Origin: Escherichia coli
GTDB lineage: Bacteria > Pseudomonadota > Gammaproteobacteria > Enterobacterales > Enterobacteriaceae
Assembly: GCF_003991155.1 (NCBI RefSeq)
Contig: NZ_CP031293.1
DNA length: 64,000 nucleotides
Direction: 5' to 3' (one strand)
The notes under the pieces are model-generated. The model was not told where the DNA came from and made no database searches. It saw only the letters and a list, made by a program, of their open reading frames with translations. Made by a program: the position numbers and the translations under genes. Of this stretch, positions 12,456 to 64,000 are shown piece after piece. The number at the start of each line of letters is the position of its first letter. The first letter of the stretch is position 1.

Positions 12456-12737
12456 TCACTTTCCTTTCGTTCTGCCCATTAGTGGACAGCTAACTAGTGG
12501 CAGGACATCGGAGTACAGCACCTTCCCGTTGTTATTTATCAGCACGGCAGCTTTCTGGTTATTGACGAGCACAGTTTTCACGCCGCCGCCAAAGTTGTGG
12601 AAGACTCGCACCAGTGACTCATGGGTATGTTCAGCATCCTGTATGGGGCAGCAAAGAGATAGAAGCGACGTGAGAACCCCCTGCGTATTAGTCGCGAAGT
12701 TAATGCAGCATCGTTGTCTGACCAGTACCCCAGTCAT
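12456..12737 (-). pseudogene. IS21-family transposase IstA fragment (central DDE region, truncated)
   Basis: Translation ...QDAEHTHESLVRVFHNFGGGVKTVLVNNQKAAVLINNNGKV...GRTKGK closely parallels IS21 IstA and stops inside the TKGK(V)E motif; flanking frames 12738..13143 look like further degenerate remains. Confidence 0.6.
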
Positions 12738-13219: not shown

Positions 13220-13903
13220 TTATGAATTTTCTTTTATCCTGCTATTTTGGGGTTTATTGTGAAAGTAACTTTCAAGAACAGGCAGATAGTACCAGGATTC
13301 AGGATGTTTTTTCAGGAATTCATTTAAAAATGATTGCATTGTTAAATATAAATCTTTGTTATTTCCTTTATGTATAAAATCATAAATCCACACGTAATTA
13401 CTGTAATTAGAATCAAAGTATGATGCAATAAAATACGCATTAGCACCTGCGCGTCTTACAATATATTCCCAACCACCGTGCAACCATGCTTTCTTATTCA
13501 GTAGACAAGCTTCTCTTACAGAACCATAGTTTTCGCTACTATACACTGAGGGTATATCTGGTAATATAATCAAATTAGCTCCGTTTTTTACAAGCTTAAT
13601 CATGGCCTTTATTTCTGTAATGCCATTTTTTTCGAAAACAGTAATCTGATGCCCAAGTCCAGAAAGTGAATGTATTAATTCCAACTCATTGAGACCATTT
13701 ACAGAACTTCTATAAAAAATAAAATGTGAGTTAGATTTATATGAAAGTAGAATTTTATGAATGGCTGTCCAGTATTCACCAGAATGTAAAACTACAAACA
13801 CAGAATTATTAAGTGTTTTATGTAATGCATCCAAAAAACAGTCTTCATATATAAATTTTGTACGGTGTGCATACTCATGAAGGGTATTCATAGACACAAT
13901 CAT
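13220..13903 (-). CDS. hypothetical AT-rich protein with LpxL/LpxM-like (lipid A late acyltransferase family) features, lacking the usual N-terminal region
   Basis: 227 aa; H-S-G-E-Y-W and ILPDIP motifs resemble HxGxWE and LPDQD motifs of LpxL-family enzymes; markedly AT-rich. Confidence 0.35.
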   Translation of the reverse strand: MIVSMNTLHEYAHRTKFIYEDCFLDALHKTLNNSVFVVLHSGEYWTAIHKILLSYKSNSHFIFYRSSVNGLNELELIHSLSGLGHQITVFEKNGITEIKAMIKLVKNGANLIILPDIPSVYSSENYGSVREACLLNKKAWLHGGWEYIVRRAGANAYFIASYFDSNYSNYVWIYDFIHKGNNKDLYLTMQSFLNEFLKKHPESWYYLPVLESYFHNKPQNSRIKENS

Positions 13904-13983
13904 TTTAGCCCTATTACTGACAATAATGATAATTGATATTCTGAGCGTATCGAAAATAAGTCCGAATTATCAGAAGGTTTATT

Positions 13984-14756
13984 ATGAAAATACTCATTGC
14001 AGGGGCAACCGGAAGTATTGGTCTTCATGTCGTGAATACCGCTATTGAAATGGGTCATCAGCCCGTGGCGCTGGTCAGAAATAAACGCAAAGTAAAATCT
14101 CTTCCTCGTGGAACAGATGTTTTTTACGGCGATGTTTCAATGCCGGAAACACTCACCGAATTGCCGAAAGATATTGATGCCATCATCTTCACTCTCGGTT
14201 CTGATGGCCAGGGGCGTATTGGTGCCAGAGCGATCGATTACGGAGGAGTGCGTAATATTTTGCGAATATTCAGGGATACACCTGTTCGTATCAGCTAATG
14301 ACCACGATTGGCGTGACTGAGCGGCTCAGCACTTGGAATCAACGCACTGAGGTTCATGACAGGAAAAGACGTGCCGAGCGTCTGGTCAGGGCCAGCGGTC
14401 ATCCCTATATTATCGTCCGGCCCGGCTGGTTTGATTACAACAATGATGATGAACACAGGATCGTTATGCTTCAGGGGGATCGTCGCCATGCAGGAACACC
14501 GGAAGATGGTGTGATATCCCGGGAGCAAATCGCCCAGGTTCTGGTCAGTGCCCTGACCAACGACGAGGCAAAAAATAAAACGTTCGAGCTGGTGGCTGAA
14601 CGAGGTGAAGCACCACAGGATCTTACCCCACTGTTTGCAGAACTGCAGACTGATGATGCACAAAAAAATGATGGGGTTCTGGACATAGACAATATGCAGC
14701 TGAGAGAAGAACCGGAGTGCATTATTAACGAGCTGAACCTGTATTCAAAAAATTAA
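13984..14756 (+). pseudogene. NAD(P)H-binding NmrA/atypical-SDR-family oxidoreductase split by a frameshift at ~14296
   Basis: First ORF (104 aa) starts with Rossmann motif MKILIAGATGSIG; second ORF (152 aa) continues the family in another frame; junction AGCTAATGACC. Confidence 0.6.
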
Positions 14757-14897
14757 ACAATCTACAACCCTGACAATTTTGTCATATAGCGGTCAGCCTC
14801 ATGACAGTTTAAGTCTGTATATTTACATACACAAACGGGGATAGTTCCCTTGATACGAATCCAGTTTTAAACATAGATTTTAAAAGAGGTATTAAAT

Positions 14898-15149
14898 ATG
14901 AAAGCATTACTTATTACTACATTGGTCATGGGGTTTATTTCAGTGAATGCCGCATCTGCAGCTCAGGAAATTAACCATGCAGATGGGAAAGAAAAGATAG
15001 GTGTAGTCTCAGCCAGCAATGCCTATACGCTTGATGAATTATCGAATACGCTTTCTCGTAAGGCTGATGAACAAGGAGCAACATCGTTCAAAATTCTGTC
15101 AACCACGGGGAATAACCGGCTGCACGGGGTTGCTGAAATCTATAAGTAA
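14898..15149 (+). CDS. BhsA/YdgH/McbA-family (DUF1471) small secreted stress protein
   Basis: 83 aa with signal peptide and C-terminal ...LHGVAEIYK closely paralleling E. coli BhsA. Confidence 0.75.
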   Translation: MKALLITTLVMGFISVNAASAAQEINHADGKEKIGVVSASNAYTLDELSNTLSRKADEQGATSFKILSTTGNNRLHGVAEIYK

Positions 15150-15205
15150 ATCATTAGTATCCTGAGCAGGATGTGTCTTAACCCTCTTATAGCGAGCGTC
15201 GATTT

Positions 15206-15541
15206 ATGTTTAGAACAGAAGACATCATCGATGAGATAACCCAATGGATTGATTCAAATTTACATAAGCCGCTGAAGATAGAGGATGTTGCTGCGCGGGC
15301 AGGATACTCGAGGTGGCATCTTCAGCGGATTTTTGTGCAGGTGAGAGAAATTAGCCTTGGGAAGTACATAAGAGATACGAAACTTAGACTTGCAGCAAAA
15401 GATCTTATCGCGACTAATGAGCCAGTGATGGTTATCGCCTTTAAATATGGATTCGATTCACAACAAACTTTTACTCGGATTTTCTTTAAAAAATATAAAT
15501 TGCCACCATTGAAATATAGGGTAATGACTCCAACTTATTGA
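15206..15541 (+). CDS. MarA/SoxS/Rob-type small AraC-family regulator, 3' end replaced by IS1 sequence
   Basis: Two HTH regions (SRWHLQRIF... / ...QQTFTRIF) like SoxS; IS1 left end begins at 15520 inside the ORF so the last ~7 codons and the stop are IS1-derived. Confidence 0.7.
15511..15519. repeat. IS1 target-site duplication, left copy (GAAATATAG)
   Basis: Identical 9-mer directly flanks both IS1 ends. Confidence 0.8.
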
Positions 15542-16038
15542 TAGTGTTTTATGTTCAGATAATGCCCGATGACTTTGTCATGCAGCTCCACCGATTTTGA
15601 AAACGACAGCGACTTCCGTCCCAGCCGTGCCAGGTGCTGCCTCAGATTCAGGTTATGCCGCTCAATTCGCTGCGTATATCGCTTGCTGATTACGTGCAGC
15701 TTTCCCTTCAGGCGGGATTCATACAGCGGCCAGCCATCCGTCATCCATATCACCACGTCAAAGGGTGACAGCAGGCTCATAAGACGCCCCAGCGTCGCCA
15801 TAGTGCGTTCACCGAATACGTGCGCAACAACCGTCTTCCGGAGCCTGTCATACGCGTAAAACAGCCAGCGCTGGCGCGATTTAGCCCCGACGTATCCCCA
15901 CTGTTCGTCCATTTCCGCGCAGACGATGACGTCACTGCCCGGCTGTATGCGCGAGGTTACCGACTGCGGCCTGAGTTTTTTAAATGGCGGAAAATCGTGT
16001 TGAGGCCAACGCCCATAATGCGGGCGGTTGCCCGGCAT
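15535..16038 (-). CDS. insB: IS1 InsB (expressed as InsAB' by frameshift)
   Basis: 167-aa ORF matching IS1 InsB. Confidence 0.85.
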
Positions 16039-16232
16039 CCAACGCCATTCATGGCCATATCAATGATTTTCTGGTGCGTACCGGGTTGAGAAGCGGTGTA
16101 AGTGAACTGCAGTTGCCATGTTTTACGGCAATGAGAGCAGAGATAGCGCTGATGTCCGGCGGTGCTTTTGCCGTTACGCACCACTCCGTCAGTAGCTGAA
16201 CAGGAGGGACAGCTGATAGAAACAGAAGCCAC
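15957..16232 (-). CDS. insA: IS1 InsA
   Basis: [42 protein letters not shown]... Confidence 0.9.
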
Positions 16233-16287
16233 TGGAGCACCTCAAAAACACCATCATACACTAAATCAGTAAGTTGGCAGCATCACC

Positions 16288-16296
16288 GAAATATAG
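16288..16296. repeat. IS1 target-site duplication, right copy (GAAATATAG)
   Basis: Identical 9-mer directly flanks both IS1 ends. Confidence 0.8.
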
Positions 16297-16522
16297 AAAC
16301 GCGGAAAGGAGAAAAAAACTTCACCAGCCCATGTCTTAAGTTCTGTCAGTATGGCTACAGCCTGTTTGCTGAGTGGCACAAGGTGTGGTGTTCGAATCTT
16401 GGTTCCCCAATGAGAGTTCAGGCGGTGTGGGCAAATAAAAAAGAAAACATAAATAAAACCATCCGACCGTTGGTGGGGCTGGATGGTTATTCATTATTTC
16501 TATGTCACTGAACTTTCATTCA

Positions 16523-17704
16523 TCAGATCTGCTCAGAAAGTGAATCAATGTAGTCAGCATACCACTGCATCATTTCACGGCGACCATCCAGATACTGGGC
16601 ATGATTATAGGTACCTCTGATAGCGTTTTTATCCATATGAGCTAACTGCATTTCAATCCAGGCAGAATTAAAGCCCTGTTCGTGCAGAATTGTACTCATG
16701 GTGTGTCTGAAACCGTGCCCTGTGAGTCTTCCCTTATATCCTAGTAATTCAATGACTTGGTTTATGCTTTCCTTACTAATTGGTTTGCGAGGATCGTTCC
16801 TACCGATAAAGACCAGAGGATGATGTTTTGAGATTGGTTCAAGTTGCTTAAATAGCGCAATGACCTGCTCAGAGAGCGGCACAATATGAGGTCGCTTCAT
16901 CTTCATTACTTCTGCCGGGATCTCCCATAATTTTGTCTCAAAATCGATATCCTCCCAGCGTGCGAAACGCAATTCTTGAGTTCGTACACCAGTTAGCATA
17001 ATGATTTGAGTGGCTGTCTTAGTGATAATACTTCCGGTATAACCCGCCAGATCATTGAGGAAGTGGGGAAGTTCATTAGCAGTAAGAAAGGGAAAATGTA
17101 CTTTTTTCGGTGTAGCTAAAGCACTGGCAAGATCGGGAGCAGGGTTGTAGTTAGCCCGACCAGTAACAATTGCATAGCGGAACACCTCTCCACAGCGCTG
17201 GCGGACCTTACGCATTTTCTCCAGAGCTCCACGTTTTTCCATTTTACGCAATGCTTCCAGTAACTCCATTGGTTTGATTTCAGCAATAGGGCGTTTGCCA
17301 ATATAGGGAAAAATATCTTTTTCAAAGGTATCAATGATTTCATCACGATAGCGTAATGACCACCGATCGGCTTTTGACTGATGCCATTCTCGAGCAACGG
17401 CCTCAAATGTGTTTTTCAAACTCATTTGCAGCGCGATTTTTTCTTCTTTTTTTGTCTCACCCGGATCGCATCCTGCAGCGAGGATTTTCCTAGCTTCACT
17501 GCGTTTTTCGCGAGCGTCGGCTAGAGTTACATCGGGGTATACGCCAATAGAAAGCATCTTTTCTTTGCCAGCAAAGCGGTACTTCATACGCCAATATTTA
17601 GAACCATTAGTGTTAATGAGTAGATACATACCGCCACCATCAGACAGCTTATAGGGCTTTTCTTTTGGTTTTGCGGTTTTCACTTTAATATCAGTTAACG
17701 CCAT
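16523..17704 (-). CDS. P4-type (CP4-like) tyrosine integrase
   Basis: 393 aa, C-terminal HGFRHT...Y catalytic signature; lies beside the 3' end of selC in the same orientation. Confidence 0.85.
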   Translation of the reverse strand: MALTDIKVKTAKPKEKPYKLSDGGGMYLLINTNGSKYWRMKYRFAGKEKMLSIGVYPDVTLADAREKRSEARKILAAGCDPGETKKEEKIALQMSLKNTFEAVAREWHQSKADRWSLRYRDEIIDTFEKDIFPYIGKRPIAEIKPMELLEALRKMEKRGALEKMRKVRQRCGEVFRYAIVTGRANYNPAPDLASALATPKKVHFPFLTANELPHFLNDLAGYTGSIITKTATQIIMLTGVRTQELRFARWEDIDFETKLWEIPAEVMKMKRPHIVPLSEQVIALFKQLEPISKHHPLVFIGRNDPRKPISKESINQVIELLGYKGRLTGHGFRHTMSTILHEQGFNSAWIEMQLAHMDKNAIRGTYNHAQYLDGRREMMQWYADYIDSLSEQI

Positions 17705-17999: not shown

Positions 18000-18094
18000 T
18001 GGCGGAAGATCACAGGAGTCGAACCTGCCCGGGACCGCTGGCGGCCCCAACTGGATTTGAAGTCCAGCCGCCTCACCGGAGACGACGATCTTCC
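18000..18094 (-). tRNA. selC: tRNA-Sec (selenocysteine)
   Basis: Reverse complement reads GGAAGATCGTCGTCTCCGGTGAGGCGGCTGGACTTCAAATCCAGTTGGGGCCGCCAGCGGTCCCGGGCAGGTTCGACTCCTGTGATCTTCCGCCA (95 nt, CCA end), matching E. coli selC as recalled. Confidence 0.9.
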
Positions 18095-43872: not shown

Positions 43873-44736
43873 TTATTCAATGTTCTGAATCTGCTCGCGC
43901 ATCTGCTCAATCAACACTTTCAGCTCAATCGCGGAGTTTGTCACTTCGGCATTGATAGACTTCGAAGCAAGAGTGTTCGACTCGCGGTTGAACTCCTGCA
44001 TCATAAAGTCCAGACGACGGCCAACCGCTTCTTTTTTCTTCAGAATGTTGTAGGTCTCTTTGACATGCGCTTCGAGGCGATCCAGTTCTTCGGCAACGTC
44101 AATTCGTTGTGCCAGCAGAACCAACTCCTGCTCCAGACGGTTGTTTTCCAGTTGCACCTGAGCATCTTCCAGCTTCGCGACCAGACGCTCACGCTGCCAT
44201 TGCAGGATTTCCGGCATATGGGCGCGGACTTTGACCACTTCGGCGCTGACGCCTTCCAGACGCTGCTCAATCAACACTTTCAGCGCCTGACCTTCGGTTT
44301 CACGTGCGATGATAAAGTCGTCCAGCGTACCATCCAACGCCGCGAGAATTTCAGCGGCAATCGCGTCGAGATCCTGCTCCTGGGCTGCCATCACGCCCGG
44401 CCAGCGTAGAATATCAACCGGATTGATTTCCCCTTCGTCACTCTGCATTTTTACCCAGTTCGCGGCAGTTACCAGCTGTTTAGCCAGTTTTTCGTTGAGG
44501 ATCAGCTCACCTTGCGCGCTAACATCTGGCTCATAGCGCAGGGTACATTCCACTTTACCGCGCGTCAGGCGAGAACGAATACGCTCACGAACGACAGGTT
44601 CAAGGCTACGGAACTGCTCCGGCAGACGAAAGTAAGTTTCCAGATAACGCTGGTTTACCGAGCGCATTTCCCAGGTTGCGCTCCCCCATTCACCCTTGAT
44701 TTCACGCCGGGCGTAGGCGGTCATACTGCGGATCAT
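43873..44736 (-). CDS. yicC: YicC-family stress-induced protein
   Basis: 287 aa MIRSMTAYARREIKGEWGSATWEMRSVNQRYLE... Confidence 0.9.
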   Translation of the reverse strand: MIRSMTAYARREIKGEWGSATWEMRSVNQRYLETYFRLPEQFRSLEPVVRERIRSRLTRGKVECTLRYEPDVSAQGELILNEKLAKQLVTAANWVKMQSDEGEINPVDILRWPGVMAAQEQDLDAIAAEILAALDGTLDDFIIARETEGQALKVLIEQRLEGVSAEVVKVRAHMPEILQWQRERLVAKLEDAQVQLENNRLEQELVLLAQRIDVAEELDRLEAHVKETYNILKKKEAVGRRLDFMMQEFNRESNTLASKSINAEVTNSAIELKVLIEQMREQIQNIE

Positions 44737-51108: not shown

Positions 51109-52873
<1,765 letters not shown>

Positions 52874-53224
52874 AGTAAATAGCTGACTTATGGATGTGCT
52901 GGGGATTCTATGTATTTAGCTGTGGCTTTACCATTACTTTTCCCGTTTTTGACTTAAATAGCAATTTACCCGCCAATTCTTGCTGAACATCTATACTTTT
53001 TTTGTATTTTTATGCGATTCATTGATTTCTGCAGTACGTGCAGGAAGGAATCGCAGAGCAACAGTAAAAGAATATGGTTGCTAATGATTTTATTTGATTG
53101 ATTTCTTTATTGAAAATCAACAATGTGCTTAAAAATCATTCGGGTCGGATTGCCGCGAAAGAAGTGATACACTAGCGCGTCAATATCAGTGCGGTATCAG
53201 TATTCAGGTAGCTGTTGAGCCTGG

Positions 53225-53236
53225 GGCGGTAGCGTG
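53225..53236 (+). promoter_or_regulatory. ops element GGCGGTAGCGTG in the waaQ operon leader (RfaH recruitment site)
   Basis: Exact 12-mer ~50 nt upstream of waaQ start on the coding strand. Confidence 0.8.
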
Positions 53237-53285
53237 CTTTTTCTGCTTCACCTTAATCGGATAATCTCAACAAAAAGAGTTACTT

Positions 53286-54344
53286 GTGGATAAGCCATTT
53301 CGAAGAATTTTGCTCATTAAGATGCGTTTTCATGGGGATATGTTATTAACTACTCCCGTCATTAGTTCGCTGAAAAAAAATTACCCTGACGCAAAAATCG
53401 ATGTGCTGCTTTATCAGGACACCATCCCGATCCTGTCTGAAAATCCAGAGATTAACGCGCTCTACGGCATAAAAAATAAAAAAGCAAAAGCCTCAGAAAA
53501 AATTGCCAACTTTTTCCATCTCATCAAGATATTACGTGCCAATAAGTATGACCTTATCGTTAATCTTACCGATCAATGGATGGTTGCTATACTGGTTCGC
53601 TTATTAAATGCCCGTGTGAAAATTTCCCAGGATTATCATCATCGGCAGTCTGCTTTTTGGCGTAATAGTTTCACTCATTTGGTGCCGTTGCAGGGTGGAA
53701 ATGTGGTGGAAAGTAACTTATCCGTGCTGACGCCATTGGGACTTGAATCGTTGGTGAAGCAGACAACCATGAGTTACCCGCCTGCAAGCTGGAAACGTAT
53801 GCGTCGCGAACTTGATCACGCTGGTGTTGGACAAAATTATGTGGTTATCCAACCTACGGCGCGGCAAATCTTCAAATGCTGGGACAACGCCAAGTTTTCC
53901 GCTGTGATTGATGCCTTACATGCTCGTGGTTATGAAGTCGTTCTGACGTCCGGCCCAGATAAAGACGATCTGGCCTGCGTCAATGAAATTGCGCAGGGAT
54001 GCCAGACGCCACCAGTAACGGCGCTGGCCGGAAAGGTGACCTTCCCGGAACTTGGTGCGTTAATCGATCATGCGCAGCTGTTTATTGGCGTTGATTCCGC
54101 ACCGGCGCATATTGCCGCTGCAGTTAATACGCCGCTGATATCGCTGTTTGGTGCGACAGACCATATTTTCTGGCGTCCCTGGTCAAATAACATGATTCAA
54201 TTCTGGGCGGGAGATTACCGGGAAATGCCAACGCGCGATCAGCGTGACCGAAATGAGATGTATCTTTCGGTTATTCCGGCGGCAGATGTCATTGCAGCTG
54301 TCGATAAATTACTTCCCTCCTCCACGACAGGTACGTCGTTATGA
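53286..54344 (+). CDS. waaQ: LPS heptosyltransferase III (GT9)
   Basis: First gene after ops; GTG at 53286 or internal ATG as start. Confidence 0.85.
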   Translation: MDKPFRRILLIKMRFHGDMLLTTPVISSLKKNYPDAKIDVLLYQDTIPILSENPEINALYGIKNKKAKASEKIANFFHLIKILRANKYDLIVNLTDQWMVAILVRLLNARVKISQDYHHRQSAFWRNSFTHLVPLQGGNVVESNLSVLTPLGLESLVKQTTMSYPPASWKRMRRELDHAGVGQNYVVIQPTARQIFKCWDNAKFSAVIDALHARGYEVVLTSGPDKDDLACVNEIAQGCQTPPVTALAGKVTFPELGALIDHAQLFIGVDSAPAHIAAAVNTPLISLFGATDHIFWRPWSNNMIQFWAGDYREMPTRDQRDRNEMYLSVIPAADVIAAVDKLLPSSTTGTSL

Positions 54345-55465
54345 TCGTTGCTTTTTGTTTATATAAATATTTTCCCTTTGGCGGTTTGCAGCGCGATTTT
54401 ATGCGCATTGCTCAGACAGTTGCCGCCCGAGGTCATCATGTTCGGGTTTATACCCAGTCGTGGGAAGGCGAATGCCCTGATGTATTTGAACTGATCAAAG
54501 TGCCGGTTAAATCGCATACCAATCACGGGCGCAATGCGGAATATTTTGCCTGGGTGCAAAAACATTTACGTGAACACCCCGTCGATAGAGTCGTTGGATT
54601 TAATAAAATGCCGGGGCTGGACGTTTATTATGCCGCTGATGTTTGTTATGCCGAGAAAGTAGCGCAGGAGAAAGGCTTTTTCTATCGCCTGACGTCACGT
54701 TATCGCCATTATGCCGCCTTTGAGCGGGCAACCTTCGAACAGGGCAAGCCGACACAGCTGCTGATGCTGACAGATAAGCAAATCGCCGATTTCCAGAAAC
54801 ATTATCAGACTGAGGCGGAGCGTTTTCATATTCTGCCACCGGGGATTTATCCTGATCGTAAATATAGCCAGCAACCAGCGAATAGCCGTGAAATCTTCCG
54901 TAAGAAGAATGGAATAACCGAACAACAATATTTATTGTTGCAGGTCGGTTCAGACTTCACGCGTAAAGGTGTCGATCGTTCCATTGAAGCACTTGCTTCG
55001 TTACCGGATTCGCTGCGCCACAACACATTACTATATGTTGTTGGGCAGGATAAACCGCGAAAATTTGAGGCGCTGGCAGAAAAACGCGGCGTGCGCAGTA
55101 ATGTTCACTTCTTCTCGGGGCGCAACGATGTCTCGGAATTAATGGCGGCGGCGGATTTATTACTTCATCCTGCCTACCAGGAAGCGGCGGGAATTGTGTT
55201 GCTGGAAGCGATAACTGCAGGATTACCGGTACTAACAACAGCCGTTTGTGGCTATGCGCATTATATTGTCGACGCCAATTGCGGCGAGGCTATTGCTGAG
55301 CCATTCCGCCAGGAAACATTGAATGAGATTTTACGCAAAGCGTTAACGCAATCTTCATTGCGCCAGGCCTGGGCGGAAAATGCGCGACATTATGCTGATA
55401 CACAAGATTTATACAGTCTGCCAGAGAAAGCGGCGGACATCATAACGGGTGGTCTGGATGGTTGA
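54341..55465 (+). CDS. waaG: LPS glucosyltransferase I (GT4)
   Basis: 374 aa; conserved position and GT4 features. Confidence 0.9.
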
Positions 55466-56255
55466 ACTTAAAGAGCCGTTTGCCACGTTATGGCGCGGTA
55501 AAGATCCTTTTGAGGAAGTTAAAACCTTGCAGGGTGAGGTATTTCGTGAACTGGAAACTCGCCGCACTCTGCGCTTTGAAATGGCGGGCAAAAGCTATTT
55601 TCTCAAATGGCATCGCGGCACGACCCTGAAAGAGATAATCAAAAATTTACTCTCATTGCGGATGCCAATATTAGGCGCAGACCGCGAATGGAATGCGATT
55701 CATCGACTGCGGGATGTCGGCGTTGATACTATGTATGGGGTGGCATTCGGCGAAAAAGGCATTAATCCGCTGACCAGAACCTCGTTTATTATTACCGAAG
55801 ATCTGACACCAACCATCAGTCTGGAAGATTACTGTGCTGACTGGGCGACCAACCCACCAGATGTTCGCGTAAAGCGTATGCTTATTAAGCGTGTCGCGAC
55901 GATGGTGCGCGATATGCATGCTGCGGGCATTAACCACCGTGACTGTTATATCTGTCATTTCCTGCTGCACTTGCCTTTTTCCGGTAAGGAAGAGGAGTTA
56001 AAAATTTCAGTAATTGACCTGCACCGGGCGCAGCTTCGCACGCGCGTTCCACGTCGTTGGCGCGATAAAGATCTTATTGGACTTTATTTTTCTTCGATGA
56101 ATATTGGCCTGACTCAACGGGATATCTGGCGGTTTATGAAAGTGTATTTTGTCGCCCCGCTTAAAGACATTCTCAAGCAGGAACAAGGGCTGCTGTCGCA
56201 AGCAGAAGAAAAAGCCACAAAAATCAGGGAAAGAACGATTCGAAAATCGTTGTAA
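55458..56255 (+). CDS. waaP: LPS core heptose(I) kinase
   Basis: 265 aa from [21 protein letters not shown]... Confidence 0.9.
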
Positions 56256-56270
56256 TTTCCGGAGAGAAAT

Positions 56271-57287
56271 ATGAGTGCCCACTATTTTAATCCACAAGAG
56301 ATGATCAATAAGACAATCATCTTCGATGAAAGGCCAGAGGCGTCAGTGGCATCATCATTCCATGTTGCTTATGGCATTGATCAGAACTTTCTTTTTGGTT
56401 GTGGTGTTTCAATCACGTCAGTTTTGTTACATAACAACGACGTGAGTTTTGTCTTCCACGTTTTTATTGATGATATCCCTGACGCCGATATCCAGCGTTT
56501 ATCCCAATTGGCGAAAAGCTATCATACCTGTATCCAGATCCATCTGGTAAATTGTGAACGGCTTAAGGTATTACCGACGACCAAAAATTGGTCTATTGCC
56601 ATGTATTTCCGTTTTGTAATTGCAGATTACTTTATTGATCAACAAGATAAGATCCTGTACCTGGATGCTGATATCGCCTGTCAGGGAACCTTAAAACCGC
56701 TGATAACAATGGATCTTGCCAATAGCGTTGCTGCTGTTGTTACTGAACGCGATGCTAACTGGTGGTCGTTACGGGCTCAAAGTCTGCAGTGTAATGAACT
56801 TGAAAAGGGTTACTTTAATTCAGGTGTCCTGTTAATTAATACACCTGCGTGGGCGCAGGAGTCCGTTTCTGCTAAAGCGATGTCGATGCTTGCTGATAAA
56901 GCCGTCGTTTCCCGTTTAACCTATATGGATCAAGATATACTAAATCTTATCCTGTTAGGGAAAGTTAAATTCATTGATGCTAAATACAATACGCAATTTA
57001 GTTTAAATTATGAATTAAAAAAATCATTTATTTGTCCAATTAATGATGAAACCGTATTAATTCATTATGTCGGCCCGACAAAACCCTGGCATTACTGGGC
57101 CGGTTATCCAAGCGCGCAGCCATTTATCAAAGCCAAAGAAGCATCGCCCTGGAAAAATGAACAGTTAATGCGGCCAATTAACTCAAATTATGCTCGTTAT
57201 TGCGCCAAGCATAATTTTAAACAAAATAAACCAATTAACGGGATAATGAATTATATTTATTATTTTTATTTAAAGATAATAAAATGA
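56271..57287 (+). CDS. waaO: GT8 LPS core alpha-1,3-glucosyltransferase (R1-type waaO position)
   Basis: 338-aa GT8 protein directly after waaP; gene order fits R1/R4 core types. Confidence 0.6.
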   Translation: MSAHYFNPQEMINKTIIFDERPEASVASSFHVAYGIDQNFLFGCGVSITSVLLHNNDVSFVFHVFIDDIPDADIQRLSQLAKSYHTCIQIHLVNCERLKVLPTTKNWSIAMYFRFVIADYFIDQQDKILYLDADIACQGTLKPLITMDLANSVAAVVTERDANWWSLRAQSLQCNELEKGYFNSGVLLINTPAWAQESVSAKAMSMLADKAVVSRLTYMDQDILNLILLGKVKFIDAKYNTQFSLNYELKKSFICPINDETVLIHYVGPTKPWHYWAGYPSAQPFIKAKEASPWKNEQLMRPINSNYARYCAKHNFKQNKPINGIMNYIYYFYLKIIK

Positions 57288-57303
57288 CATTGAGAAAAGT
57301 TAA

Positions 57304-58299
57304 ATGAATGAATTTATAAAAGAACGGTTTTCGTATTTAGCAGATAATAAAAAAGAAAACGTCCCAGAGCTAAATGTTTCCTACGGTATCGATAAGAATT
57401 TTTTGTATGGTGCTGGCGTTTCAATTTCTTCCGTTTTGATTAATAATTCAGATATTAATTTTGTCTTTCATGTTTTCACTGATTATGTGGATGATGATTA
57501 TTTAAAGTCATTTAATGAAACAGCAAAACAATTTAATACCTCAATTATTGTATATTTAATTGACCCAAAATACTTTGCTGATCTGCCGACGTCACAGTTT
57601 TGGTCGTACGCGACATACTTCAGGGTATTGTCCTTTGAATATCTGAGTGAAAGTATTTCCACACTGCTGTATCTGGATGCCGATGTCGTTTGTAAAGGAA
57701 GTCTGAAACCTCTCACAAAAATTATATTTAAAGATGAGTTTGCTGCGGTTATTCCTGACAATGATAGTACTCAGGCGGCATGTGCAAAACGTCTTAACAT
57801 TCCCGAAATGAATGGACGTTATTTCAATGCAGGCGTTATCTATGTCAATCTTAAAAAATGGCATGAAGCAAATTTGACACCGTATTTACTCACGCTTTTA
57901 CGAGGGGAAACTAAATATGGCTCTCTTAAATATTTAGATCAGGATGCGTTGAATATCGCATTTAATATGAATAATATCTACCTCGCGAAGGATTTTGATA
58001 CTATTTATACCCTGAAAAACGAACTTCATGATCGTAGTCATCGAAAGTATCAGCAAACCATTACCGATAAAACAGTATTGATTCACTATACAGGGATAAC
58101 TAAACCATGGCATAGCTGGGCTGGATATCCGTCTGCATCATACTTTAATATCGCGCGTGAACAATCTCCCTGGAAGAAATATCCTCTTAAAGAGGCGCGG
58201 ACTGTTGCAGAAATGCAGAAACAATATAAGCATCTGTTTGCCCATGGTGAGTATATAAAAGGCATAACTTCATTAATTAAGTACAAGCTTAAGAAATAA
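57304..58299 (+). CDS. waaT: GT8 LPS core alpha-1,2-galactosyltransferase (R1-type waaT position)
   Basis: 331-aa GT8 protein second after waaP, before waaY. Confidence 0.55.
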   Translation: MNEFIKERFSYLADNKKENVPELNVSYGIDKNFLYGAGVSISSVLINNSDINFVFHVFTDYVDDDYLKSFNETAKQFNTSIIVYLIDPKYFADLPTSQFWSYATYFRVLSFEYLSESISTLLYLDADVVCKGSLKPLTKIIFKDEFAAVIPDNDSTQAACAKRLNIPEMNGRYFNAGVIYVNLKKWHEANLTPYLLTLLRGETKYGSLKYLDQDALNIAFNMNNIYLAKDFDTIYTLKNELHDRSHRKYQQTITDKTVLIHYTGITKPWHSWAGYPSASYFNIAREQSPWKKYPLKEARTVAEMQKQYKHLFAHGEYIKGITSLIKYKLKK

Positions 58300-58308
58300 A
58301 TTACTCTT

Positions 58309-59001
58309 ATGATTACAAGTATACGTTACCGCGGCTTCTCATTTTATTACAAAAATAATGATAATAAATATAAAGAAATCTTTGATGAAATACTGGCCTA
58401 TAATTTTAAAACAGTAAAAGTATTACGTAATATTGATGATACCAAAGTATCGTTGATTGATACGAAATATGGTCGCTATGTTTTTAAAGTCTTTGCTCCG
58501 AAAACGAAAAGGAATGAACGTTTTTTAAAATCTTTTGTAAAAGGTGACTACTATCAGAATTTGATCGTTGAAACCGATCGTGTCAGAAGTGCAGGTCTTA
58601 CTTTTCCTAATGATTTTTATTTTCTGGCTGAGCGTAAAATTTTCAATTATGCCAGTGTTTTTATCATGCTTATCGAGTATGTCGAGGGCGTAGAGCTCAA
58701 TGATATGCCGATTATTCCAGAAGATGTTAAAGCAGAAATTAAGGCTTCAATGGAAAAATTGCATGCCTTAAATATGCTATCGGGCGACCCACACCGGGGT
58801 AACTTTATCGTTAGTAAAGATGGTGTCAGGATAATTGACCTATCCGGTAAAAGCTGTACGGCAGAGCGTAAAGCTCGTGATCGTCTGGCCATGGAACGTC
58901 ACCTGGGTATTGCCAACGAAATAAAAGATTATGGCTACTATTCAGTAATCTACAGAACCAAACTACGCAAATTTATTAAAAAATTAAAAGGCAAAGCGTA
59001 A
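58309..59001 (+). CDS. waaY: LPS core heptose(II) kinase
   Basis: 230 aa, WaaY-like kinase (MITSIRYRGFSFYYKNND...). Confidence 0.75.
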   Translation: MITSIRYRGFSFYYKNNDNKYKEIFDEILAYNFKTVKVLRNIDDTKVSLIDTKYGRYVFKVFAPKTKRNERFLKSFVKGDYYQNLIVETDRVRSAGLTFPNDFYFLAERKIFNYASVFIMLIEYVEGVELNDMPIIPEDVKAEIKASMEKLHALNMLSGDPHRGNFIVSKDGVRIIDLSGKSCTAERKARDRLAMERHLGIANEIKDYGYYSVIYRTKLRKFIKKLKGKA

Positions 59002-59026
59002 ACCACACAGTCAAAACGGAACCAAC

Positions 59027-60055
59027 ATGGATTTATTAGCTGAGAGTATTACTGAAGTCGCTGTCTCTGGGGAAATTGCTAACACCGATCGTGTGTTAAA
59101 TATCGCTTACGGTATTGACCGCAACTTTTTATTTGGTGCAGCAGTATCTATGCAATCAGTTGTTATGCATAACCCGGATCTTGCGGTTAAGTTTCATCTC
59201 TTTACTGACTACATTGATGAAGATTATCTACAACGTGTTAATGCTTTTACCAGCAAAAATGCTAACGTTGAAGTAAGAATTTATAAAGTATCCAGTGCCT
59301 TTATTGATATCTTCCCCAGCCTGAAACAGTGGTCTTATGCAACATTCTTCCGTTTAGTTGCGTTCCAGTATCTGAGTGAAACTATTGAAAATCTGTTATA
59401 TATCGATGCTGATGTCATCTGTAAAGGCTCATTAGCTGGATTGCTTGATATTAATTTTGATGGCGATAAATTCGCAGCTGTTATTAAAGATGTGCCTTTT
59501 ATGCAGGAAAAACCAGCGAAGCGTCTGGCTATAGAGGGGCTTCCAGGGAATTATTTCAACGCCGGTGTAGTATATCTGCAGCTTGAAGCGTGGGCGAAAA
59601 ATGATTTTATGAATAAAGCCATTGCTATGCTGGCAAGTGACCCGCAGCACACGAAGTATAAATGCCTTGATCAGGATATTTTAAATATTCTGTTCTTTGG
59701 TCATTGTATTTTTATTAGCGGCGATTATGATTGCTTTTATGGCATTGACTATGAGTTAAAAAATAAAAGCGATGAAGATTATAAAAAGACCATTACCGAT
59801 GATACTAAGCTGATTCATTATGTTGGCGTAACGAAGCCCTGGAACGACTGGACGAATTATCCCTGCCAGAAGTATTTTAATGAGGCTTATCAGGCTTCTT
59901 GCTGGAATGATGTGGCGTTTATTCCAGCCACGAATGAAAAGCAGTATCAAGTGAAATACCAACATGCAAAGAAAAATGGTGATACGTTTAACGCTTTTAT
60001 TTACTTCATTAAATTCAAATTAAATAAGTATAAAAGAAAACTATTTAGGCAATAA
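59027..60055 (+). CDS. waaW: GT8 LPS core glycosyltransferase (R1-type waaW position)
   Basis: 342-aa GT8 protein after waaY. Confidence 0.55.
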   Translation: MDLLAESITEVAVSGEIANTDRVLNIAYGIDRNFLFGAAVSMQSVVMHNPDLAVKFHLFTDYIDEDYLQRVNAFTSKNANVEVRIYKVSSAFIDIFPSLKQWSYATFFRLVAFQYLSETIENLLYIDADVICKGSLAGLLDINFDGDKFAAVIKDVPFMQEKPAKRLAIEGLPGNYFNAGVVYLQLEAWAKNDFMNKAIAMLASDPQHTKYKCLDQDILNILFFGHCIFISGDYDCFYGIDYELKNKSDEDYKKTITDDTKLIHYVGVTKPWNDWTNYPCQKYFNEAYQASCWNDVAFIPATNEKQYQVKYQHAKKNGDTFNAFIYFIKFKLNKYKRKLFRQ

Positions 60056-60136
60056 TAAAAATTATGGATGTCTAAGTTACAATAATAATTAAGGATGAGT
60101 CCTATCATATTTTATTAGTTCAGGCAAGAGAACACG

Positions 60137-61120
60137 ATGAGCAATGATTACCCTTTAGTATCCATAATAATACCGACGTATAATTCATCTGATTACATTA
60201 CTGAAACTCTAACGAAATTAGAAAAACAAACTTACCCAAATTTTGAAATTGTTATTGTTAATGATGGTTCTAAAGATAACACATCAAATGTTTTGAGAGA
60301 GTATGGGTTAACCCACTCTCGATTAATTATTATCAATAAAGAAAATGGCGGTGTTTCGTCTGCCAGGAATACAGGTATCCGCAAGGCGCAAGGACAGTTT
60401 ATATGTTTTATGGATGATGATGATGAGATAGATCCTAACTATCTGCTGAAGATGTATTCCAGACAACATGAGACGGGAGGGGATGCGATTTATTGTGGGC
60501 TTTATGGACATCATATAAAAAATGGTGTTACTTACTCACCTATAAATACAGATTTTAATGAAGGGTCTTTACTTTTCGATTTTTTTTATAAAAAGGTCAG
60601 ATTCCATATAGGGTGCTTGTTTATAAGAAAACAACTCCTGGAAGATAATAATCTTTTTTTTGATGAAGATTTACGACTAGGAGAAGATCTGGATTTTATC
60701 TATCGACTGCTAATTACATGCGATATGTATGCGGTTCCATATTATATGTATAAGCATAACTATAGAGAAAATTCCCTAATGAACTCATGTAGAACCATCA
60801 CTCATTATCGACATGAGTCATTTGCGCACGAAAGAATCTACTCTTCTGTGATGCAGTTATACAAAGGTAACCGGAAAGAAGAAATTCATACATTATTGAG
60901 TAAAAATAGAACTTATCATAAAACTCGTTATTTATGGAATGTTCTACTTAATGGCGATTTTGAATTATTAAATCAATTAGTTGAAAGCAATGAAAAAGAA
61001 TTGAAAGATTGTAATCTTCTTGGCAAGAGAGATAAGAGGCGAGCAAAAATATTAGCATCAAAAAACTATATTCTCTGGAGGATGGTAAGACTGGTAAATA
61101 GAAAAAAGAATAAACGTTAG
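60137..61120 (+). CDS. waaV: GT2 LPS outer-core beta-glycosyltransferase (R1-type waaV position)
   Basis: 327 aa with GT2 motifs (IIIPTYNSSDYI, VNDGSKDNT, DDDDEID). Confidence 0.5.
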   Translation: MSNDYPLVSIIIPTYNSSDYITETLTKLEKQTYPNFEIVIVNDGSKDNTSNVLREYGLTHSRLIIINKENGGVSSARNTGIRKAQGQFICFMDDDDEIDPNYLLKMYSRQHETGGDAIYCGLYGHHIKNGVTYSPINTDFNEGSLLFDFFYKKVRFHIGCLFIRKQLLEDNNLFFDEDLRLGEDLDFIYRLLITCDMYAVPYYMYKHNYRENSLMNSCRTITHYRHESFAHERIYSSVMQLYKGNRKEEIHTLLSKNRTYHKTRYLWNVLLNGDFELLNQLVESNEKELKDCNLLGKRDKRRAKILASKNYILWRMVRLVNRKKNKR

Positions 61121-61165
61121 GTCTTGCATTAAATAACCCATCCTCGTAGCATAGGTTGAAATTAT

Positions 61166-62419
61166 ATGTCGTTTTGTTGGAAAGAAATTAACTCTGGTGT
61201 CAAGTCTTTAATTCTCATATTATGTATGTTGTCTTTAATGACTTTGTCTTTGTGGGATGATGTTGCAACAAAGTTTCTTCATGCAGCTGGAATTATATCT
61301 GCATTATATTTTCTAGCGACAGCAAAAAAAACAATAACTAATAATCCTACTTTGTTAATTTTTATCTCATTATGTCTTTTGGGTATCGTTAATATCATCT
61401 GGTATTCACATTATAAAGTTTCAGGCTCGGTTTATACCAATGCATATCGTGGCCCAATGGAAACTGGAAAAATTGCCTTGTGTAGTGCTTTTATTTTCTT
61501 AGTTCTTTTTGCTAAAGATGAGATGAGAACAAAAATAAAATTTGGGAAACTAATTCTGTTCGCATCCCTGGCAACGCAGTTACTTTTTTTTGCGCATGCC
61601 ATGTGGCAACATTTCTATTTAAACGTAGACCGTGTTGCATTATCAGCTTCCCACGCTACAACAGCAGGCTACATCATCCTTTTCCCTTCTTTACTGGCAT
61701 CAATTCTCATTTTAAAATGCGACTTTAGACATAAAACAACATTATATACAATTAACTTCATGCTTAGCTTATGTGCTGTCATAGTAACTGAAACGCGTGC
61801 AGCCATATTAGTGTTTCCATTCTTTGCGTTACTATTAATCGTAATGGATAGTTATATTAATAAGCGAATTAATTATAAGTTATATTGTTTTATTGCGATT
61901 GCATTATTAGCAGGTGTGTTTTCTTTTAAAGATACATTGCTTATGAGAATGAATGACTTAAATAACGATTTAGTTAATTATTCGCATGATAACACCAGAA
62001 CTTCAGTCGGTGCCCGTCTGGCAATGTATGAAGTTGGTTTAAAAACATATTCTCCAATAGGACAATCACTGGAAAAACGCGCGGAAAAAATACATGAACT
62101 AGAAGAGAAAGAGCCTAGATTAAGTGGCGCTTTACCCTTTGTAGATTCTCATTTGCATAACGATCTCATAGATACGTTATCAACGCGTGGTATTCCTGGA
62201 GTAGTATTAACAATTTTAGCCTTTTCAGCAATATTCATATATGCCTTAAGAACTGCTAAAGAACCTTATATTTTAATCTTGCTTTTTTCACTACTGGTAG
62301 TAGGCCTAAGTGATGTAATACTCTTTTCTAAACCGGTTCCGACTGCTGTGTTTGTCACCATAATATTGCTTTGTGCTTATTTTAAAGCACAATCGGACCA
62401 ATGTTTATTAGATAAGTAA
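61166..62419 (+). CDS. waaL: O-antigen ligase
   Basis: 417-aa polytopic membrane protein at the end of the waaQ-direction gene string. Confidence 0.75.
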   Translation: MSFCWKEINSGVKSLILILCMLSLMTLSLWDDVATKFLHAAGIISALYFLATAKKTITNNPTLLIFISLCLLGIVNIIWYSHYKVSGSVYTNAYRGPMETGKIALCSAFIFLVLFAKDEMRTKIKFGKLILFASLATQLLFFAHAMWQHFYLNVDRVALSASHATTAGYIILFPSLLASILILKCDFRHKTTLYTINFMLSLCAVIVTETRAAILVFPFFALLLIVMDSYINKRINYKLYCFIAIALLAGVFSFKDTLLMRMNDLNNDLVNYSHDNTRTSVGARLAMYEVGLKTYSPIGQSLEKRAEKIHELEEKEPRLSGALPFVDSHLHNDLIDTLSTRGIPGVVLTILAFSAIFIYALRTAKEPYILILLFSLLVVGLSDVILFSKPVPTAVFVTIILLCAYFKAQSDQCLLDK

Positions 62420-62429
62420 TGAATATGTG

Positions 62430-62461
62430 AAATAAAATCAGCAAGGAAGCTGATTTTATTT
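62430..62461. terminator. perfect 13-bp inverted repeat between convergent waaL and waaC (bidirectional terminator candidate)
   Basis: AAATAAAATCAGC-AAGGAA-GCTGATTTTATTT, A/T runs on both sides. Confidence 0.7.
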
Positions 62462-62488
62462 CAAAATTATCTATTAAAGAGTTGTAAT

Positions 62489-63469
62489 TTAAATCATGGC
62501 AGCTTTTTCAGCGTTTTCTTCAATGAATTGCTTAACAGCATTTGCTGTCAATTGAGACAACTCATTCCCCGGAGCCCTACAAACCATCTGATTCTTCCCA
62601 TACCCGCCAATTAATCCCGGATCGGTAGGTCCATAAACCGTGATATTGGGTCTATCCAGTGCCGCCGTTAAATGGCTTAACCCCGTATCCACCGACACTA
62701 CAAATTTAGCTCCGGCCAGCACGCGGGCAACGCCTTCCAGACTCATCTTCGGCAATACTTCAACATAAGCAAATCCTTCCGCCAGTCGTTTCGCCCGTTC
62801 TTCCTCATGCGGCGCGCCCCACGGAAGTTTAATCCGTATTCCTGAATCAGCCAGTAAACCAATCAATTCTCGCCAGTGTTCTTCCGGCCAGTGTTTATCA
62901 TCACGGGTCGTCGCATGAAGAAATACGGCATATTCGCCAGCATCTGTAGGCCGGTTCGTCAGGAAATGCTGTGCGATAGCATAATCGCCCTGGGTTTGCG
63001 GTTTGCTATAGCCCAGACTTTTGGCAAACAGTTCGCGGGTGCGTTCTACGGCGTGCTGCTGTTTTGCAATATGATGCTTACGATTGTAAAACAGGCTGGC
63101 TAAAGGTTCGCGAGCGGTTTGCCAGTCCATGCCATGCTTTACGCCATGCGCCAGACGCGTCACCAGCGCCGCGCTTTTTACCAGCCCCTGAGCATCGATA
63201 ACTGCGTCATAGTTCTCTGCTTGTAGCGCTTCACGAAACGCTTTGCGTTCAGCTTTTATGGGGGCCGAGAACCAGGCTTTACGCCAGCGACGTATTGCCA
63301 CAGGAATAACTCGCTCAACGGCAGCGTGCCAGGAAGGAATCTGTGCGAACCCTTCTTCCACCACCCAGTCAAACTTAATTCCTGGGATTGCCTGCTGGGC
63401 ATCAGTGAGTGCGGGCAACGTATGGAGAACATCGCCCATCGACGATGTTTTAACGATCAAAACCCGCAT
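62489..63469 (-). CDS. waaC: LPS heptosyltransferase I
   Basis: MRVLIVKTSSMGDVLHTLPALTDAQQAIPGIKFDWVVEEGF... Confidence 0.95.
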   Translation of the reverse strand: MRVLIVKTSSMGDVLHTLPALTDAQQAIPGIKFDWVVEEGFAQIPSWHAAVERVIPVAIRRWRKAWFSAPIKAERKAFREALQAENYDAVIDAQGLVKSAALVTRLAHGVKHGMDWQTAREPLASLFYNRKHHIAKQQHAVERTRELFAKSLGYSKPQTQGDYAIAQHFLTNRPTDAGEYAVFLHATTRDDKHWPEEHWRELIGLLADSGIRIKLPWGAPHEEERAKRLAEGFAYVEVLPKMSLEGVARVLAGAKFVVSVDTGLSHLTAALDRPNITVYGPTDPGLIGGYGKNQMVCRAPGNELSQLTANAVKQFIEENAEKAAMI

Positions 63470-63472
63470 CCG

Positions 63473-64000
63473 TCAGGCTTCCTCTTGTAACAATAGCGCG
63501 TTGAGTTCTTCCAGTACGCGCTGGGGAGTAATGTCGATCAAGCTCTGGTGATAACCCTCCGCAGCGTCACCTTTACGCACTTTGTGATAGCCGGTAATCA
63601 GGCGGATCACGCGCGCTTTATGGGATAGCGGCGGTGTGAAGTCTGGGCTACTCGGACCATACAGGGCAACCAGCGGACGATTGAGCGCCGCCGCAACGTG
63701 CATCAGGCCAGAATCGTTAGTGACAATGGCTTTACAGGCTGCAATCAGGATAACCGCTTGATCAAGCTGTGTTTCCCCCGCCAGGTTACGACACCATGCC
63801 TGCTGCTCGGTATTCAAAGCGGCAAGAATCTCATTGCCCGCTTCATGATCTTTCGCCGAGCCAAACAGAACCACCTGATAACCTTCATCAATCAGCTGCT
63901 TTGCCAGCTCCGCATAGTGGTAGTGTGGCCAGCGTTTTGCCGGACCAAACTCCGCTCCGGGGCAAAAGCCAATCATCGGACGTTCTGATGAGAGCGAAAA
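63473..64000 (-). CDS. waaF: LPS heptosyltransferase II, C-terminal part only (gene runs off the window end)
   Basis: GT9 C-terminal region immediately upstream of waaC on the same strand. Confidence 0.85.
   Translation of the reverse strand, partial: FSLSSERPMIGFCPGAEFGPAKRWPHYHYAELAKQLIDEGYQVVLFGSAKDHEAGNEILAALNTEQQAWCRNLAGETQLDQAVILIAACKAIVTNDSGLMHVAAALNRPLVALYGPSSPDFTPPLSHKARVIRLITGYHKVRKGDAAEGYHQSLIDITPQRVLEELNALLLQEEA

Follow-up and report, generated by a model that had tools for sequence, protein, structure and literature searches.

Among the lipopolysaccharide core loci of Escherichia coli, the R1-type locus, with the gene order waaQGPOTYWVL, is known from the type strain F470, from E. 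coli C (NCTC122), from Shigella sonnei and from many ExPEC strains, and the outer core that goes with it has the structure Gal-alpha1,2-Gal-alpha1,2-[Glc-beta1,3]-Glc-alpha1,3-Glc. Other described arrangements are those of the R4 (waaQGPOTYWXL), K-12 (waaQGPSBOJYZU) and R3 (O157:H7; waaQGP-I-Y-J-D) core types. The roles of the R1 enzymes have been set out in the literature on R1 strains (bioRxiv 10.1101/2022.09.06.506728; PMC3526765; PMC13293308 Table S13). WaaG transfers glucose I to heptose II, WaaO attaches glucose II in alpha-1,3 linkage (bioRxiv 10.1101/2022.09.06.506728; PMC13293308 Table S13), WaaT adds galactose I to glucose II in alpha-1,2 linkage (bioRxiv 10.1101/2022.09.06.506728), WaaW adds galactose II to galactose I, again in alpha-1,2 linkage, and WaaV then attaches the side-branch beta-1,3 glucose to glucose II, while the heptose region is decorated by WaaP, WaaQ and WaaY, in that order. 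In the periplasm WaaL, whose sequence is core-type-specific, joins the undecaprenyl-PP-linked O-antigen to the beta-glucose that WaaV has added. R1 is the core type found most often in E. coli, and it predominates among extraintestinal pathogens (PMC13293308).

The stretch of E. coli DNA that we analysed, 64,000 nt long and hereafter called the window, carries at positions 56271-62419 a set of outer-core genes which, together with the genes upstream of it (Table 1), we read with high confidence (probability about 0.96) as the canonical, intact R1-type waa locus of the E. coli chromosome. The segment runs from the start codon (ATG) of the first outer-core ORF through the final base of the ligase stop codon; it is 100% identical over its 6149 nt to many E. 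coli chromosomes, two of which (CP029747.1 and CP024826.1) are typed R1 in the supplement of PMC13293308, and 1825 of 5426 complete genomes match at least 80% of it. Proteins were aligned with those of reference loci from E. coli C (R1), PSJ-14 (R4), O157:H7 (R3) and K-12; E. coli C was used in the form of the C122 genome, which we assume to be the same strain as NCTC122, the R1 control in PMC13293308, and PSJ-14 is typed R4 in the supplement of that paper. Annotation was also drawn from strain 2016C-3878, for the waa locus and for window positions 17356-50000 only. That strain is not colinear with the whole window, having an extra insert of ~17 kb and a different selC island.

Table 1. Features of the waa region, with positions in the 64,000-nt window
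Feature	Position	Strand	Basis
JUMPstart element with ops sequence, in the waaQ leader	53198..53236	+	Rfam RF01707, 55.2 bits vs gathering score 35, E=6e-10
waaQ, heptosyltransferase III, first operon gene	53286..54344	+	99% identical to R1, R3 and R4 WaaQ; 73% to K-12
waaG, adds glucose I to heptose II	54341..55465	+	99% identical to R1/R3/R4 WaaG; 91% to K-12
waaP, heptose I kinase	55458..56255	+	98% identical to R1/R4 WaaP
Six outer-core genes waaO-T-Y-W-V-L, after waaQGP	56271-62419	+	6149 bases, all intact
waaO, GT8, 338 aa	56271..57287	+	PF01501 and PF08437; NF011718, 610 bits vs cutoff 461
waaT, GT8, 331 aa, alpha-1,2-galactosyltransferase	57304..58299	+	Sequence identity; role from literature
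waaY, heptose II kinase, 230 aa	58309..59001	+	PF06176, 430 bits, full length; NF007684, 401 bits vs cutoff 248
waaW, GT8, 342 aa, alpha-1,2-galactosyltransferase	59027..60055	+	99.1% identical to E. coli C, 93.3% to R4
R1-specific DNA cassette, GC 0.326	59985..62569		Last 70 nt of waaW, waaV, waaL, hairpin, last ~80 nt of waaC
waaV, GT2, 327 aa, beta-1,3-glucosyltransferase, R1-defining gene	60137..61120	+	PF00535; 97.2% identical to E. coli C GT2
waaL, R1-specific O-antigen ligase, 417 aa, last gene of + strand unit	61166..62419	+	PF04932 Wzy_C
Hairpin, candidate bidirectional terminator	62428..62463		15-bp perfect stem, 6-nt loop, in the waaL-waaC gap
waaC, heptosyltransferase I, final gene in the convergent operon gmhD-waaF-waaC	62489..63469	-	97-99% identical to WaaC of four reference loci except in the C-terminal tail
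waaF, heptosyltransferase II, 3' part, cut by the window end	63473..64000	-	Colinear at 98% with reference rfaF

With E. coli C the agreement extends to gene content, order, orientation and lengths, to the junction hairpin and to the core-typing amplicon, and the DNA is 98% identical over 11.7 kb. The two loci differ only by allelic variation, in the form of 237 differences over that span and of three additional codons at the waaC 3' end. All six outer-core proteins are 95-99% identical to their counterparts in that R1 control, and their ORFs are full length against the references (338/331/230/342/327/417 aa), with WaaW, at 342 aa versus 341 aa in E. coli C, as the sole difference. Pfam and NCBIfam assignments are concordant for the genes of the locus, and the ORF map and Pfam bear out the order that the first-pass annotation had proposed downstream of waaQGP, namely GT8, GT8, the waaY kinase, GT8, GT2 and ligase. 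Among the upstream genes, waaQ is labelled rfaQ by PGAP in an identical genome, waaG has overlaps of 4 nt with waaQ and of 8 nt with waaP, and the longest ORF for waaP begins at a GTG at 55449, the PGAP start being the ATG listed in Table 1. PGAP and NCBIfam also call the product of the first outer-core ORF (waaO) a galactosyltransferase, a label in conflict with its literature role as a glucosyltransferase in R1.

Much of this resemblance is common to R1 and R4. WaaO is 95% identical to both the R1 and the R4 WaaO (55% to R3 WaaI and 51% to K-12 WaaO), WaaT is 98.5-98.8% identical to the second GT8 of E. coli C and PSJ-14 (43% to the WaaJ of K-12 or R3), and WaaY is 99% identical to its R1 and R4 counterparts (52-54% to those of K-12 and R3). 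In an R4-type locus the waaQGPOTYW backbone would be the same, with the GT25 beta-galactosyltransferase WaaX and then the ligase of R4 after it. Between waaA and a point near the end of waaW the two types are in fact alike at 98% DNA identity, and R1 is indistinguishable from R4 on the first 3704 nt of the segment alone, a part that takes in waaO-T-Y with most of waaW and is 98% identical to R4 loci. The deciding position, however, is occupied here by a GT2 enzyme where R4 has a GT25 of 257 aa, and the two are unrelated (E=5 in a direct pairwise comparison). The first-pass annotation had let the choice between R1 and R4 turn on this WaaV-like GT2 and had named a best match to WaaX or WaaD as the outcome that would overturn its reading. 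That outcome was looked for and not found: at E<=1e-3 the protein has a BLASTP match neither to the R4 GT25 of PSJ-14 nor to R3 WaaD, nor to any of the K-12 Waa proteins. The first 399 nt of the gene are 99.5% identical to a sequence labelled waaV in PMC13293308 Table S17, and in one source the exact protein bears the name "UDP-glucose:(glucosyl)LPS beta-1,3-glucosyltransferase".

The ligase sorts the loci in the same way. Its Wzy_C domain (66 bits vs a cutoff of 31.7, residues 197-349) and its similarity to the solved WaaL structure 7tpg (E=7e-13) accompany a sequence that is 96.2% identical to the WaaL of E. coli C, 35.7% to that of R4 and 30.4% to that of K-12, with no match to the R3 ligase at E<=1e-3. 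The core-typing PCR that had been suggested as a check agrees with the alignments to typed loci in favoring R1: run in silico, the LPSTyper primers give only the R1 product, which spans waaW and waaV from 59896 to 60737 with 0 mismatches and has exactly the published size of 842 bp. It is bounded by a site in waaW that R1 and R4 have in common (59896-59915) and by the R1-F site in waaV (60719-60737). The R2, R3, R4-F and K-12 primers have no site even at 3 mismatches; an R4 control locus yields its 380-bp R4 product in silico. By tblastn the window has no match to the R4 GT25. With a ligase only 36% identical to that of R4 as well, we regard the chance that this is an R4-type locus as negligible.

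The remaining core types were rejected as well. K-12 has in common with the R1-type locus the three-operon layout from waaA to gmhD, the waaQGP head (80% identical in DNA), GT8 paralogs and WaaY, but it has waaS, waaB, waaZ and waaU, which are lacking here, and its waaL lies after waaC, on the strand of the gmhD operon. As had been claimed on first inspection, the locus is not of the K-12 core type: tblastn of K-12 WaaS, WaaB and WaaZ against the 64 kb returns nothing at E<=1, K-12 WaaU (formerly RfaK) gives weak paralogous matches in waaC and waaF only, and the K-12 primers have no site, as described above. The R3 locus of O157:H7 likewise has GT8 enzymes and WaaY, and its waaQGP is 98% identical, but it has two GT8 genes versus three here, the GT4 enzyme WaaD replaces the GT2, and waaL lies after waaC on the opposite strand. 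R3 is rejected on the grounds that DNA homology to O157:H7 ends at 56320, that the sole match of WaaD (GlcNAc-transferase-like) in the window is a weak one to waaG, and that R3 primer sites are absent. R2, a type with waaK and waaZ in a gene set like that of K-12, is excluded on two grounds only, the lack of a site within 3 mismatches for its waaK/waaZ primers and the lack of a WaaZ, WaaS or WaaB homolog.

An R1 gene set may also be present and yet fail to work. In E. coli B, waaT is interrupted by IS1, and the locus in the window could in the same way be R1-like, functionally defective and productive of a truncated core. The collection does contain insertions of this kind (IS1 in C43(DE3) and STLEFF_29, ISKpn26 in OkiPb01703). 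Here, however, the nine + strand genes are uninterrupted, the outer-core proteins match the references in length and at 95-99% identity, the only indel relative to E. coli C amounts to 9 nt, at the waaC 3' end, and the exact protein sequences of the locus each occur on at least 1000 contigs, so that we hold a defective locus to be very unlikely. Still less probable, and indeed scarcely credible, is the idea that the strain resembles the R1/R4 hybrid ECOR46 in having a second waaX-waaL pair outside the locus. The ECOR46 precedent (PMC13293308) and the span of genome seen here, 64 kb, leave some room for such a pair, but the 64 kb contain neither waaX nor a second waaL, the locus has no transposase or rearrangement, and the genomes that are 100% identical over the segment have a single matching place each, the median being one per genome.

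The operon structure of the locus also favors the canonical R1 reading. JUMPstart/ops is the recruitment site of the RfaH antiterminator, and the ops sequence GGCGGTAGCGTG can be read directly at 53225-53236 in the leader of waaQ, which marks the waaQ unit as a probable RfaH-dependent operon. Junctions between genes of the + strand unit range from an 8-nt overlap to an 81-nt gap, and a terminator scan finds no + strand terminator-like site between 53286 and 62419. This arrangement suggests that waaL is co-transcribed with waaQ and that termination takes place at the hairpin beyond it. Normally, waaL stands at the end of the waaQ transcription unit: it is final there in every one of the 1825 genomes with a match to at least 80% of the segment, and in the R4 locus it is likewise last and convergent with waaC. 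Heinrichs et al. in 1998 and Amor et al. in 2000 reportedly described the waaQ operon as ending with waaL in both R1 and R4. The AT-richness noted early on for the central genes is real, the GC content of 56271-62419 being 0.353 (0.32-0.38 per gene), or 35% versus 52-54% in the flanks (0.54 for waaA and 0.525 for waaC-waaF), with 0.475 for waaQGP and 0.481 for the window as a whole.

At the downstream end, waaL (co-oriented with the waaQ operon) and waaC are convergent, as first described, and their stop codons lie 69 nt apart. The hairpin in this gap has the perfect stem that had been reported, although its length is 15 bp (62428-62442 paired with 62449-62463) rather than 13 bp, the sole error of the first-pass annotation. 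The predicted folding energy of about -20 kcal/mol goes with z scores of -6.1 and -7.0 for the two strands, and 0 of 200 shuffles fold as well; only 4 pairs of the A/T-rich stem are G-C, the T-runs fall partly within the stem, and the terminator scan, a simple one, flags the hairpin on just one strand, the - strand. E. coli C has an identical hairpin, in a 69-nt gap that is 100% conserved throughout, and by its position the hairpin probably marks the place at which transcription of the waaQ operon and of the gmhD operon would collide. Homology to the R4 locus, at 98%, stops at 59984 and restarts at 62570 (blastn), and the DNA between these points is the R1-specific cassette of Table 1. The right edge of this core-type-variable cassette falls within the last ~25 codons of waaC, and therefore the C-terminal tail of WaaC differs from one core type to the next, as does the hairpin, each type having an unrelated one of its own; R4, for example, differs from the present locus in both. 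It is conceivable, though in our opinion unlikely, that the WaaC tails and junction hairpins of the core types are co-selected functional modules and not passive recombination scars. If they were, the hairpins might, for instance, be terminators able to stop RfaH-modified polymerase, or the WaaC tail might be tuned to the core type.

Taken as the canonical R1 locus, the region would operate as follows: transcription would start upstream of waaQ, the ops sequence of the JUMPstart leader would bring in RfaH, and one long mRNA would span waaQ-G-P-O-T-Y-W-V-L and end at or near the hairpin facing waaC. At the level of sequence the R1 assignment and the gene identities are demonstrated and nothing speaks against the canonical R1 reading, the R1 enzymology being that of the literature on R1 strains. 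The R1 locus is already well described and raises no new biological question; the outcome is one of annotation only, in that the source strain is assigned to core type R1. The R1-type gene set builds the outer core and attaches O-antigen in about a third of E. coli strains, and the core type of a strain bears on its phage receptor range, on the O-antigens that can be attached, and on vaccines and antibodies directed at the core.

Nine tightly spaced plus-strand genes form one run in the window, from waaQ to the ligase gene, with waaA divergent upstream and with waaC and, beyond it, waaF convergent downstream. The interval 56271-62419 is exactly filled by six of these ORFs, neighbouring genes overlap by up to 8 nt or are separated by up to 81 nt, and all nine genes are full length and intact relative to the reference loci. 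The ORF map and the Pfam and NCBIfam assignments agree with the first-pass annotation in coordinates, gene order and orientations, and its description of the central genes as AT-rich also holds, the GC content being 0.353 over 56271-62419 as against 0.475 in waaQGP, 0.54 in waaA and 0.525 in waaC-waaF. The outer-core genes of waa loci have long been known for their low GC content. ORF1, which carries the gene name waaO, is labelled "lipopolysaccharide 3-alpha-galactosyltransferase" by NCBIfam NF011718 and PGAP; the R1-core literature describes WaaO as an alpha-1,3-glucosyltransferase responsible for adding glucose II, and the automated galactosyltransferase name was probably inherited from the WaaI enzyme of Salmonella and R3.

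Features of the waa locus, the hairpins at the convergence point in four core types, and other elements of the window (L002, L003 and L004 are the R4, K-12 and R3 reference loci)
Feature	Coordinates	Strand	Basis or remark
waaA	51596-52873	-	divergent, upstream of waaQ
JUMPstart element	53198-53236		Rfam RF01707, 55 bits
waaQ	53286-54344	+	ORF map
waaG	54341-55465	+	ORF map
waaP	55458-56255	+	ORF map
ORF1 (waaO), 338 aa	56271-57287	+	Pfam GT8 with GT8 C-terminal domain; NCBIfam WaaO-like GT8
ORF2 (waaT), 331 aa	57304-58299	+	Pfam GT8
ORF3 (waaY), 230 aa	58309-59001	+	Pfam WaaY; NCBIfam heptose II kinase
ORF4 (waaW), 342 aa	59027-60055	+	Pfam GT8
R1 typing product	59896-60737		in silico PCR, 842 bp
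ORF5 (waaV), 327 aa	60137-61120	+	Pfam GT2
ORF6 (waaL), 417 aa	61166-62419	+	Pfam Wzy_C O-antigen ligase
waaC	62489-63469	-	convergent, downstream of waaL
R1 hairpin	window 62428-62463		15/15 pairs
R4 hairpin	L002 10894-10920		13 nt at 92%
R3 hairpin	L004 13958-13998		20 nt at 80%
K-12 hairpin	L003 5222-5249		13/13
RirA	L003 15167-15239		annotated small RNA, K-12
Genomic island	1-17355		adjoins selC
IS66-family transposase genes	1489-3927		in island
Sugar-acid-like cluster	4783-11581		in island
P4-type integrase	16523-17704	-	island
selC (tRNA-Sec)	18004-18094	-

Five independent lines of sequence evidence concur in supporting an R1 core type, which had been proposed on the ground that the last glycosyltransferase belongs to the GT2 family. 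Many E. coli chromosomes match the 6149 bases of 56271-62419 at 100% identity, and 1825 of 5426 complete genomes (34%) cover at least 80% of this stretch, a proportion near the published R1 frequency of 35.5% (PMC13293308). The genomes with 100% identity include CP029747.1 (2016C-3878) and CP024826.1 (CREC-544), both of which are recorded as R1, phylogroup F, O11:H25 and ST457 (PMC13293308 supplement). In a second population of genomes the match is confined to the first 3704 bases and stops shortly before the third GT8 gene ends; PSJ-14, a member of this population that has been typed R4 (PMC13293308 supplement) and that served as our typed R4 control, encodes, at the positions that decide the type, a GT25 protein of 257 aa and another ligase. 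With the nine primers listed in PMC13293308 (Table 2), in silico PCR on the window gave the R1 product alone, equal to the published size, and the other type-specific primers had no site in the window within 3 mismatches. The R4 control locus gave a 380-bp R4 product.

The proteins were compared with those of E. coli C strain C122 (which we take to be NCTC122), PSJ-14 (R4), O157:H7 (R3) and MG1655 (K-12). NCTC122 is an R1 PCR control (PMC13293308). ORF5 is 97.2% identical to the GT2 protein of E. coli C and has no match at E<=1e-3 among proteins of the R4, R3 and K-12 loci; direct comparison with the R4 GT25 protein gave E=5. Its first 399 nt are 99.5% identical to a waaV-labelled sequence (PMC13293308 Table S17), and the exact protein is entered in one public source as "UDP-glucose:(glucosyl)LPS beta-1,3-glucosyltransferase". 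According to the literature on R1 strains, the core type is determined by WaaV in R1 and by WaaX in R4, O-antigen extending from the residue that each adds. A best match to WaaX or WaaD, named beforehand as refuting R1, was sought and not found; in tblastn searches the R3 GT4 protein WaaD matched the window in waaG alone. For ORF6, identity is 96.2% with the E. coli C ligase, 35.7% with that of R4 and 30.4% with that of K-12, no similarity to that of R3 being detectable, and ORFs 1-4 are 93-99% identical to their equivalents in the R1 and R4 loci as against 38-55% for K-12/R3 counterparts. The supposed absence of waaS, waaB and waaZ was confirmed in that tblastn with the K-12 proteins was blank across the 64 kb at E<=1; K-12 WaaU gave only weak paralogous matches, to waaC and waaF, which encode heptosyltransferases.

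Blastn comparisons delimit the R1-specific DNA. E. coli C is colinear with the window over 52272-64000 at 98.0%, R3 homology ends at 56320 and resumes at 62541, and K-12 shares only 80% identity as far as 56151, with homology taken up again from 62571 at 98.6%. Homology to R4 ends at 59984 and resumes at 62570, so that the difference between R1 and R4 amounts to a 2.6-kb cassette (59985-62569, GC 0.326) that starts with the final 70 nt of waaW, spans waaV, waaL and the hairpin, and ends with the final ~80 nt of waaC. On its right side the core-type-variable DNA reaches into the waaC 3' end (62489-62570), where its boundary falls. WaaC is 97-99% identical among R1, R3, R4 and K-12 up to "...VCRAP", and because the recombination boundary falls inside the gene the tails that follow are core-type-specific, with total lengths of 319-330 aa; window waaC is three codons longer than its E. 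coli C equivalent.

Between the waaL and waaC stop codons lie 69 nt, which contain a perfect inverted repeat, TGAAATAAAATCAGC and GCTGATTTTATTTCA, at 62428-62442 and 62449-62463. A perfect hairpin between these convergent genes had been noted correctly, its stem consisting of 15 pairs with a 6-nt loop rather than the 13 bp first described. It folds at ~-20 kcal/mol on either strand (z = -6.1 and -7.0; 0 of 200 shuffles as good), with only 4 G-C pairs in the stem and T-runs partly within it. A simple terminator scan flagged the hairpin on the minus strand only and detected no plus-strand terminator-like site before the waaL end. The hairpin may terminate transcription in both directions where the two operons meet, the most tentative of our readings. 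Exactly where the waaQ-operon and gmhD-operon strands converge, the four core types under comparison carry hairpins that differ and are unrelated to one another.

A JUMPstart element that includes the ops sequence GGCGGTAGCGTG is located in the waaQ leader, 50 nt before the gene; in the K-12 annotation, the counterpart of this leader encodes a small RNA, RirA. It is predicted that a single RfaH-dependent transcript extends from waaQ to waaL. According to the R1 literature (bioRxiv 10.1101/2022.09.06.506728; PMC3526765; PMC13293308), glucose I and glucose II are added by WaaG and WaaO and galactose I and galactose II by WaaT and WaaW, WaaV, which needs earlier WaaW action, attaches a further glucose in beta-1,3 linkage to glucose II, and the heptose region is modified by WaaP, WaaQ and WaaY, in that order.

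Elsewhere in the window, the island beside selC carries a cluster resembling sugar-acid catabolism genes, with four-carbon acid sugar kinase domains, a class II aldolase, a DeoR regulator, a TIM-barrel isomerase, a BKACE enzyme, an SBF transporter and a racemase. The selC island of 2016C-3878 differs beyond the integrase, its homology to the window ending at 17356. That genome also has, between yicC and dinD, an extra ~17.3-kb element encoding an integrase, an antirepressor, a DUF5906 primase-like protein and a DNA ejection protein, which looks like a prophage; the window lacks it, is 100% identical to 2016C-3878 on both sides of ~43873-43881, and has the empty attachment site there. Three of the 2539 places that match the R1 outer-core stretch in E. 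coli genomes are on plasmids rather than chromosomes, and an ST540 chromosome (NZ_CP007391.1) has three such places.

In K-12 and R3, waaL follows waaC on the other strand, whereas in the window it ends the waaQ unit, as it also does in E. coli C, in the R4 genome and in all genomes that match the whole stretch; its placement is no peculiarity of the window. This contrast was reportedly described by Heinrichs et al. in 1998, along with the first sequences of the R1 and R4 loci. Judged by its sequence, the locus is a standard, intact R1 core locus of a kind already known, and its value lies in correct core-type annotation.
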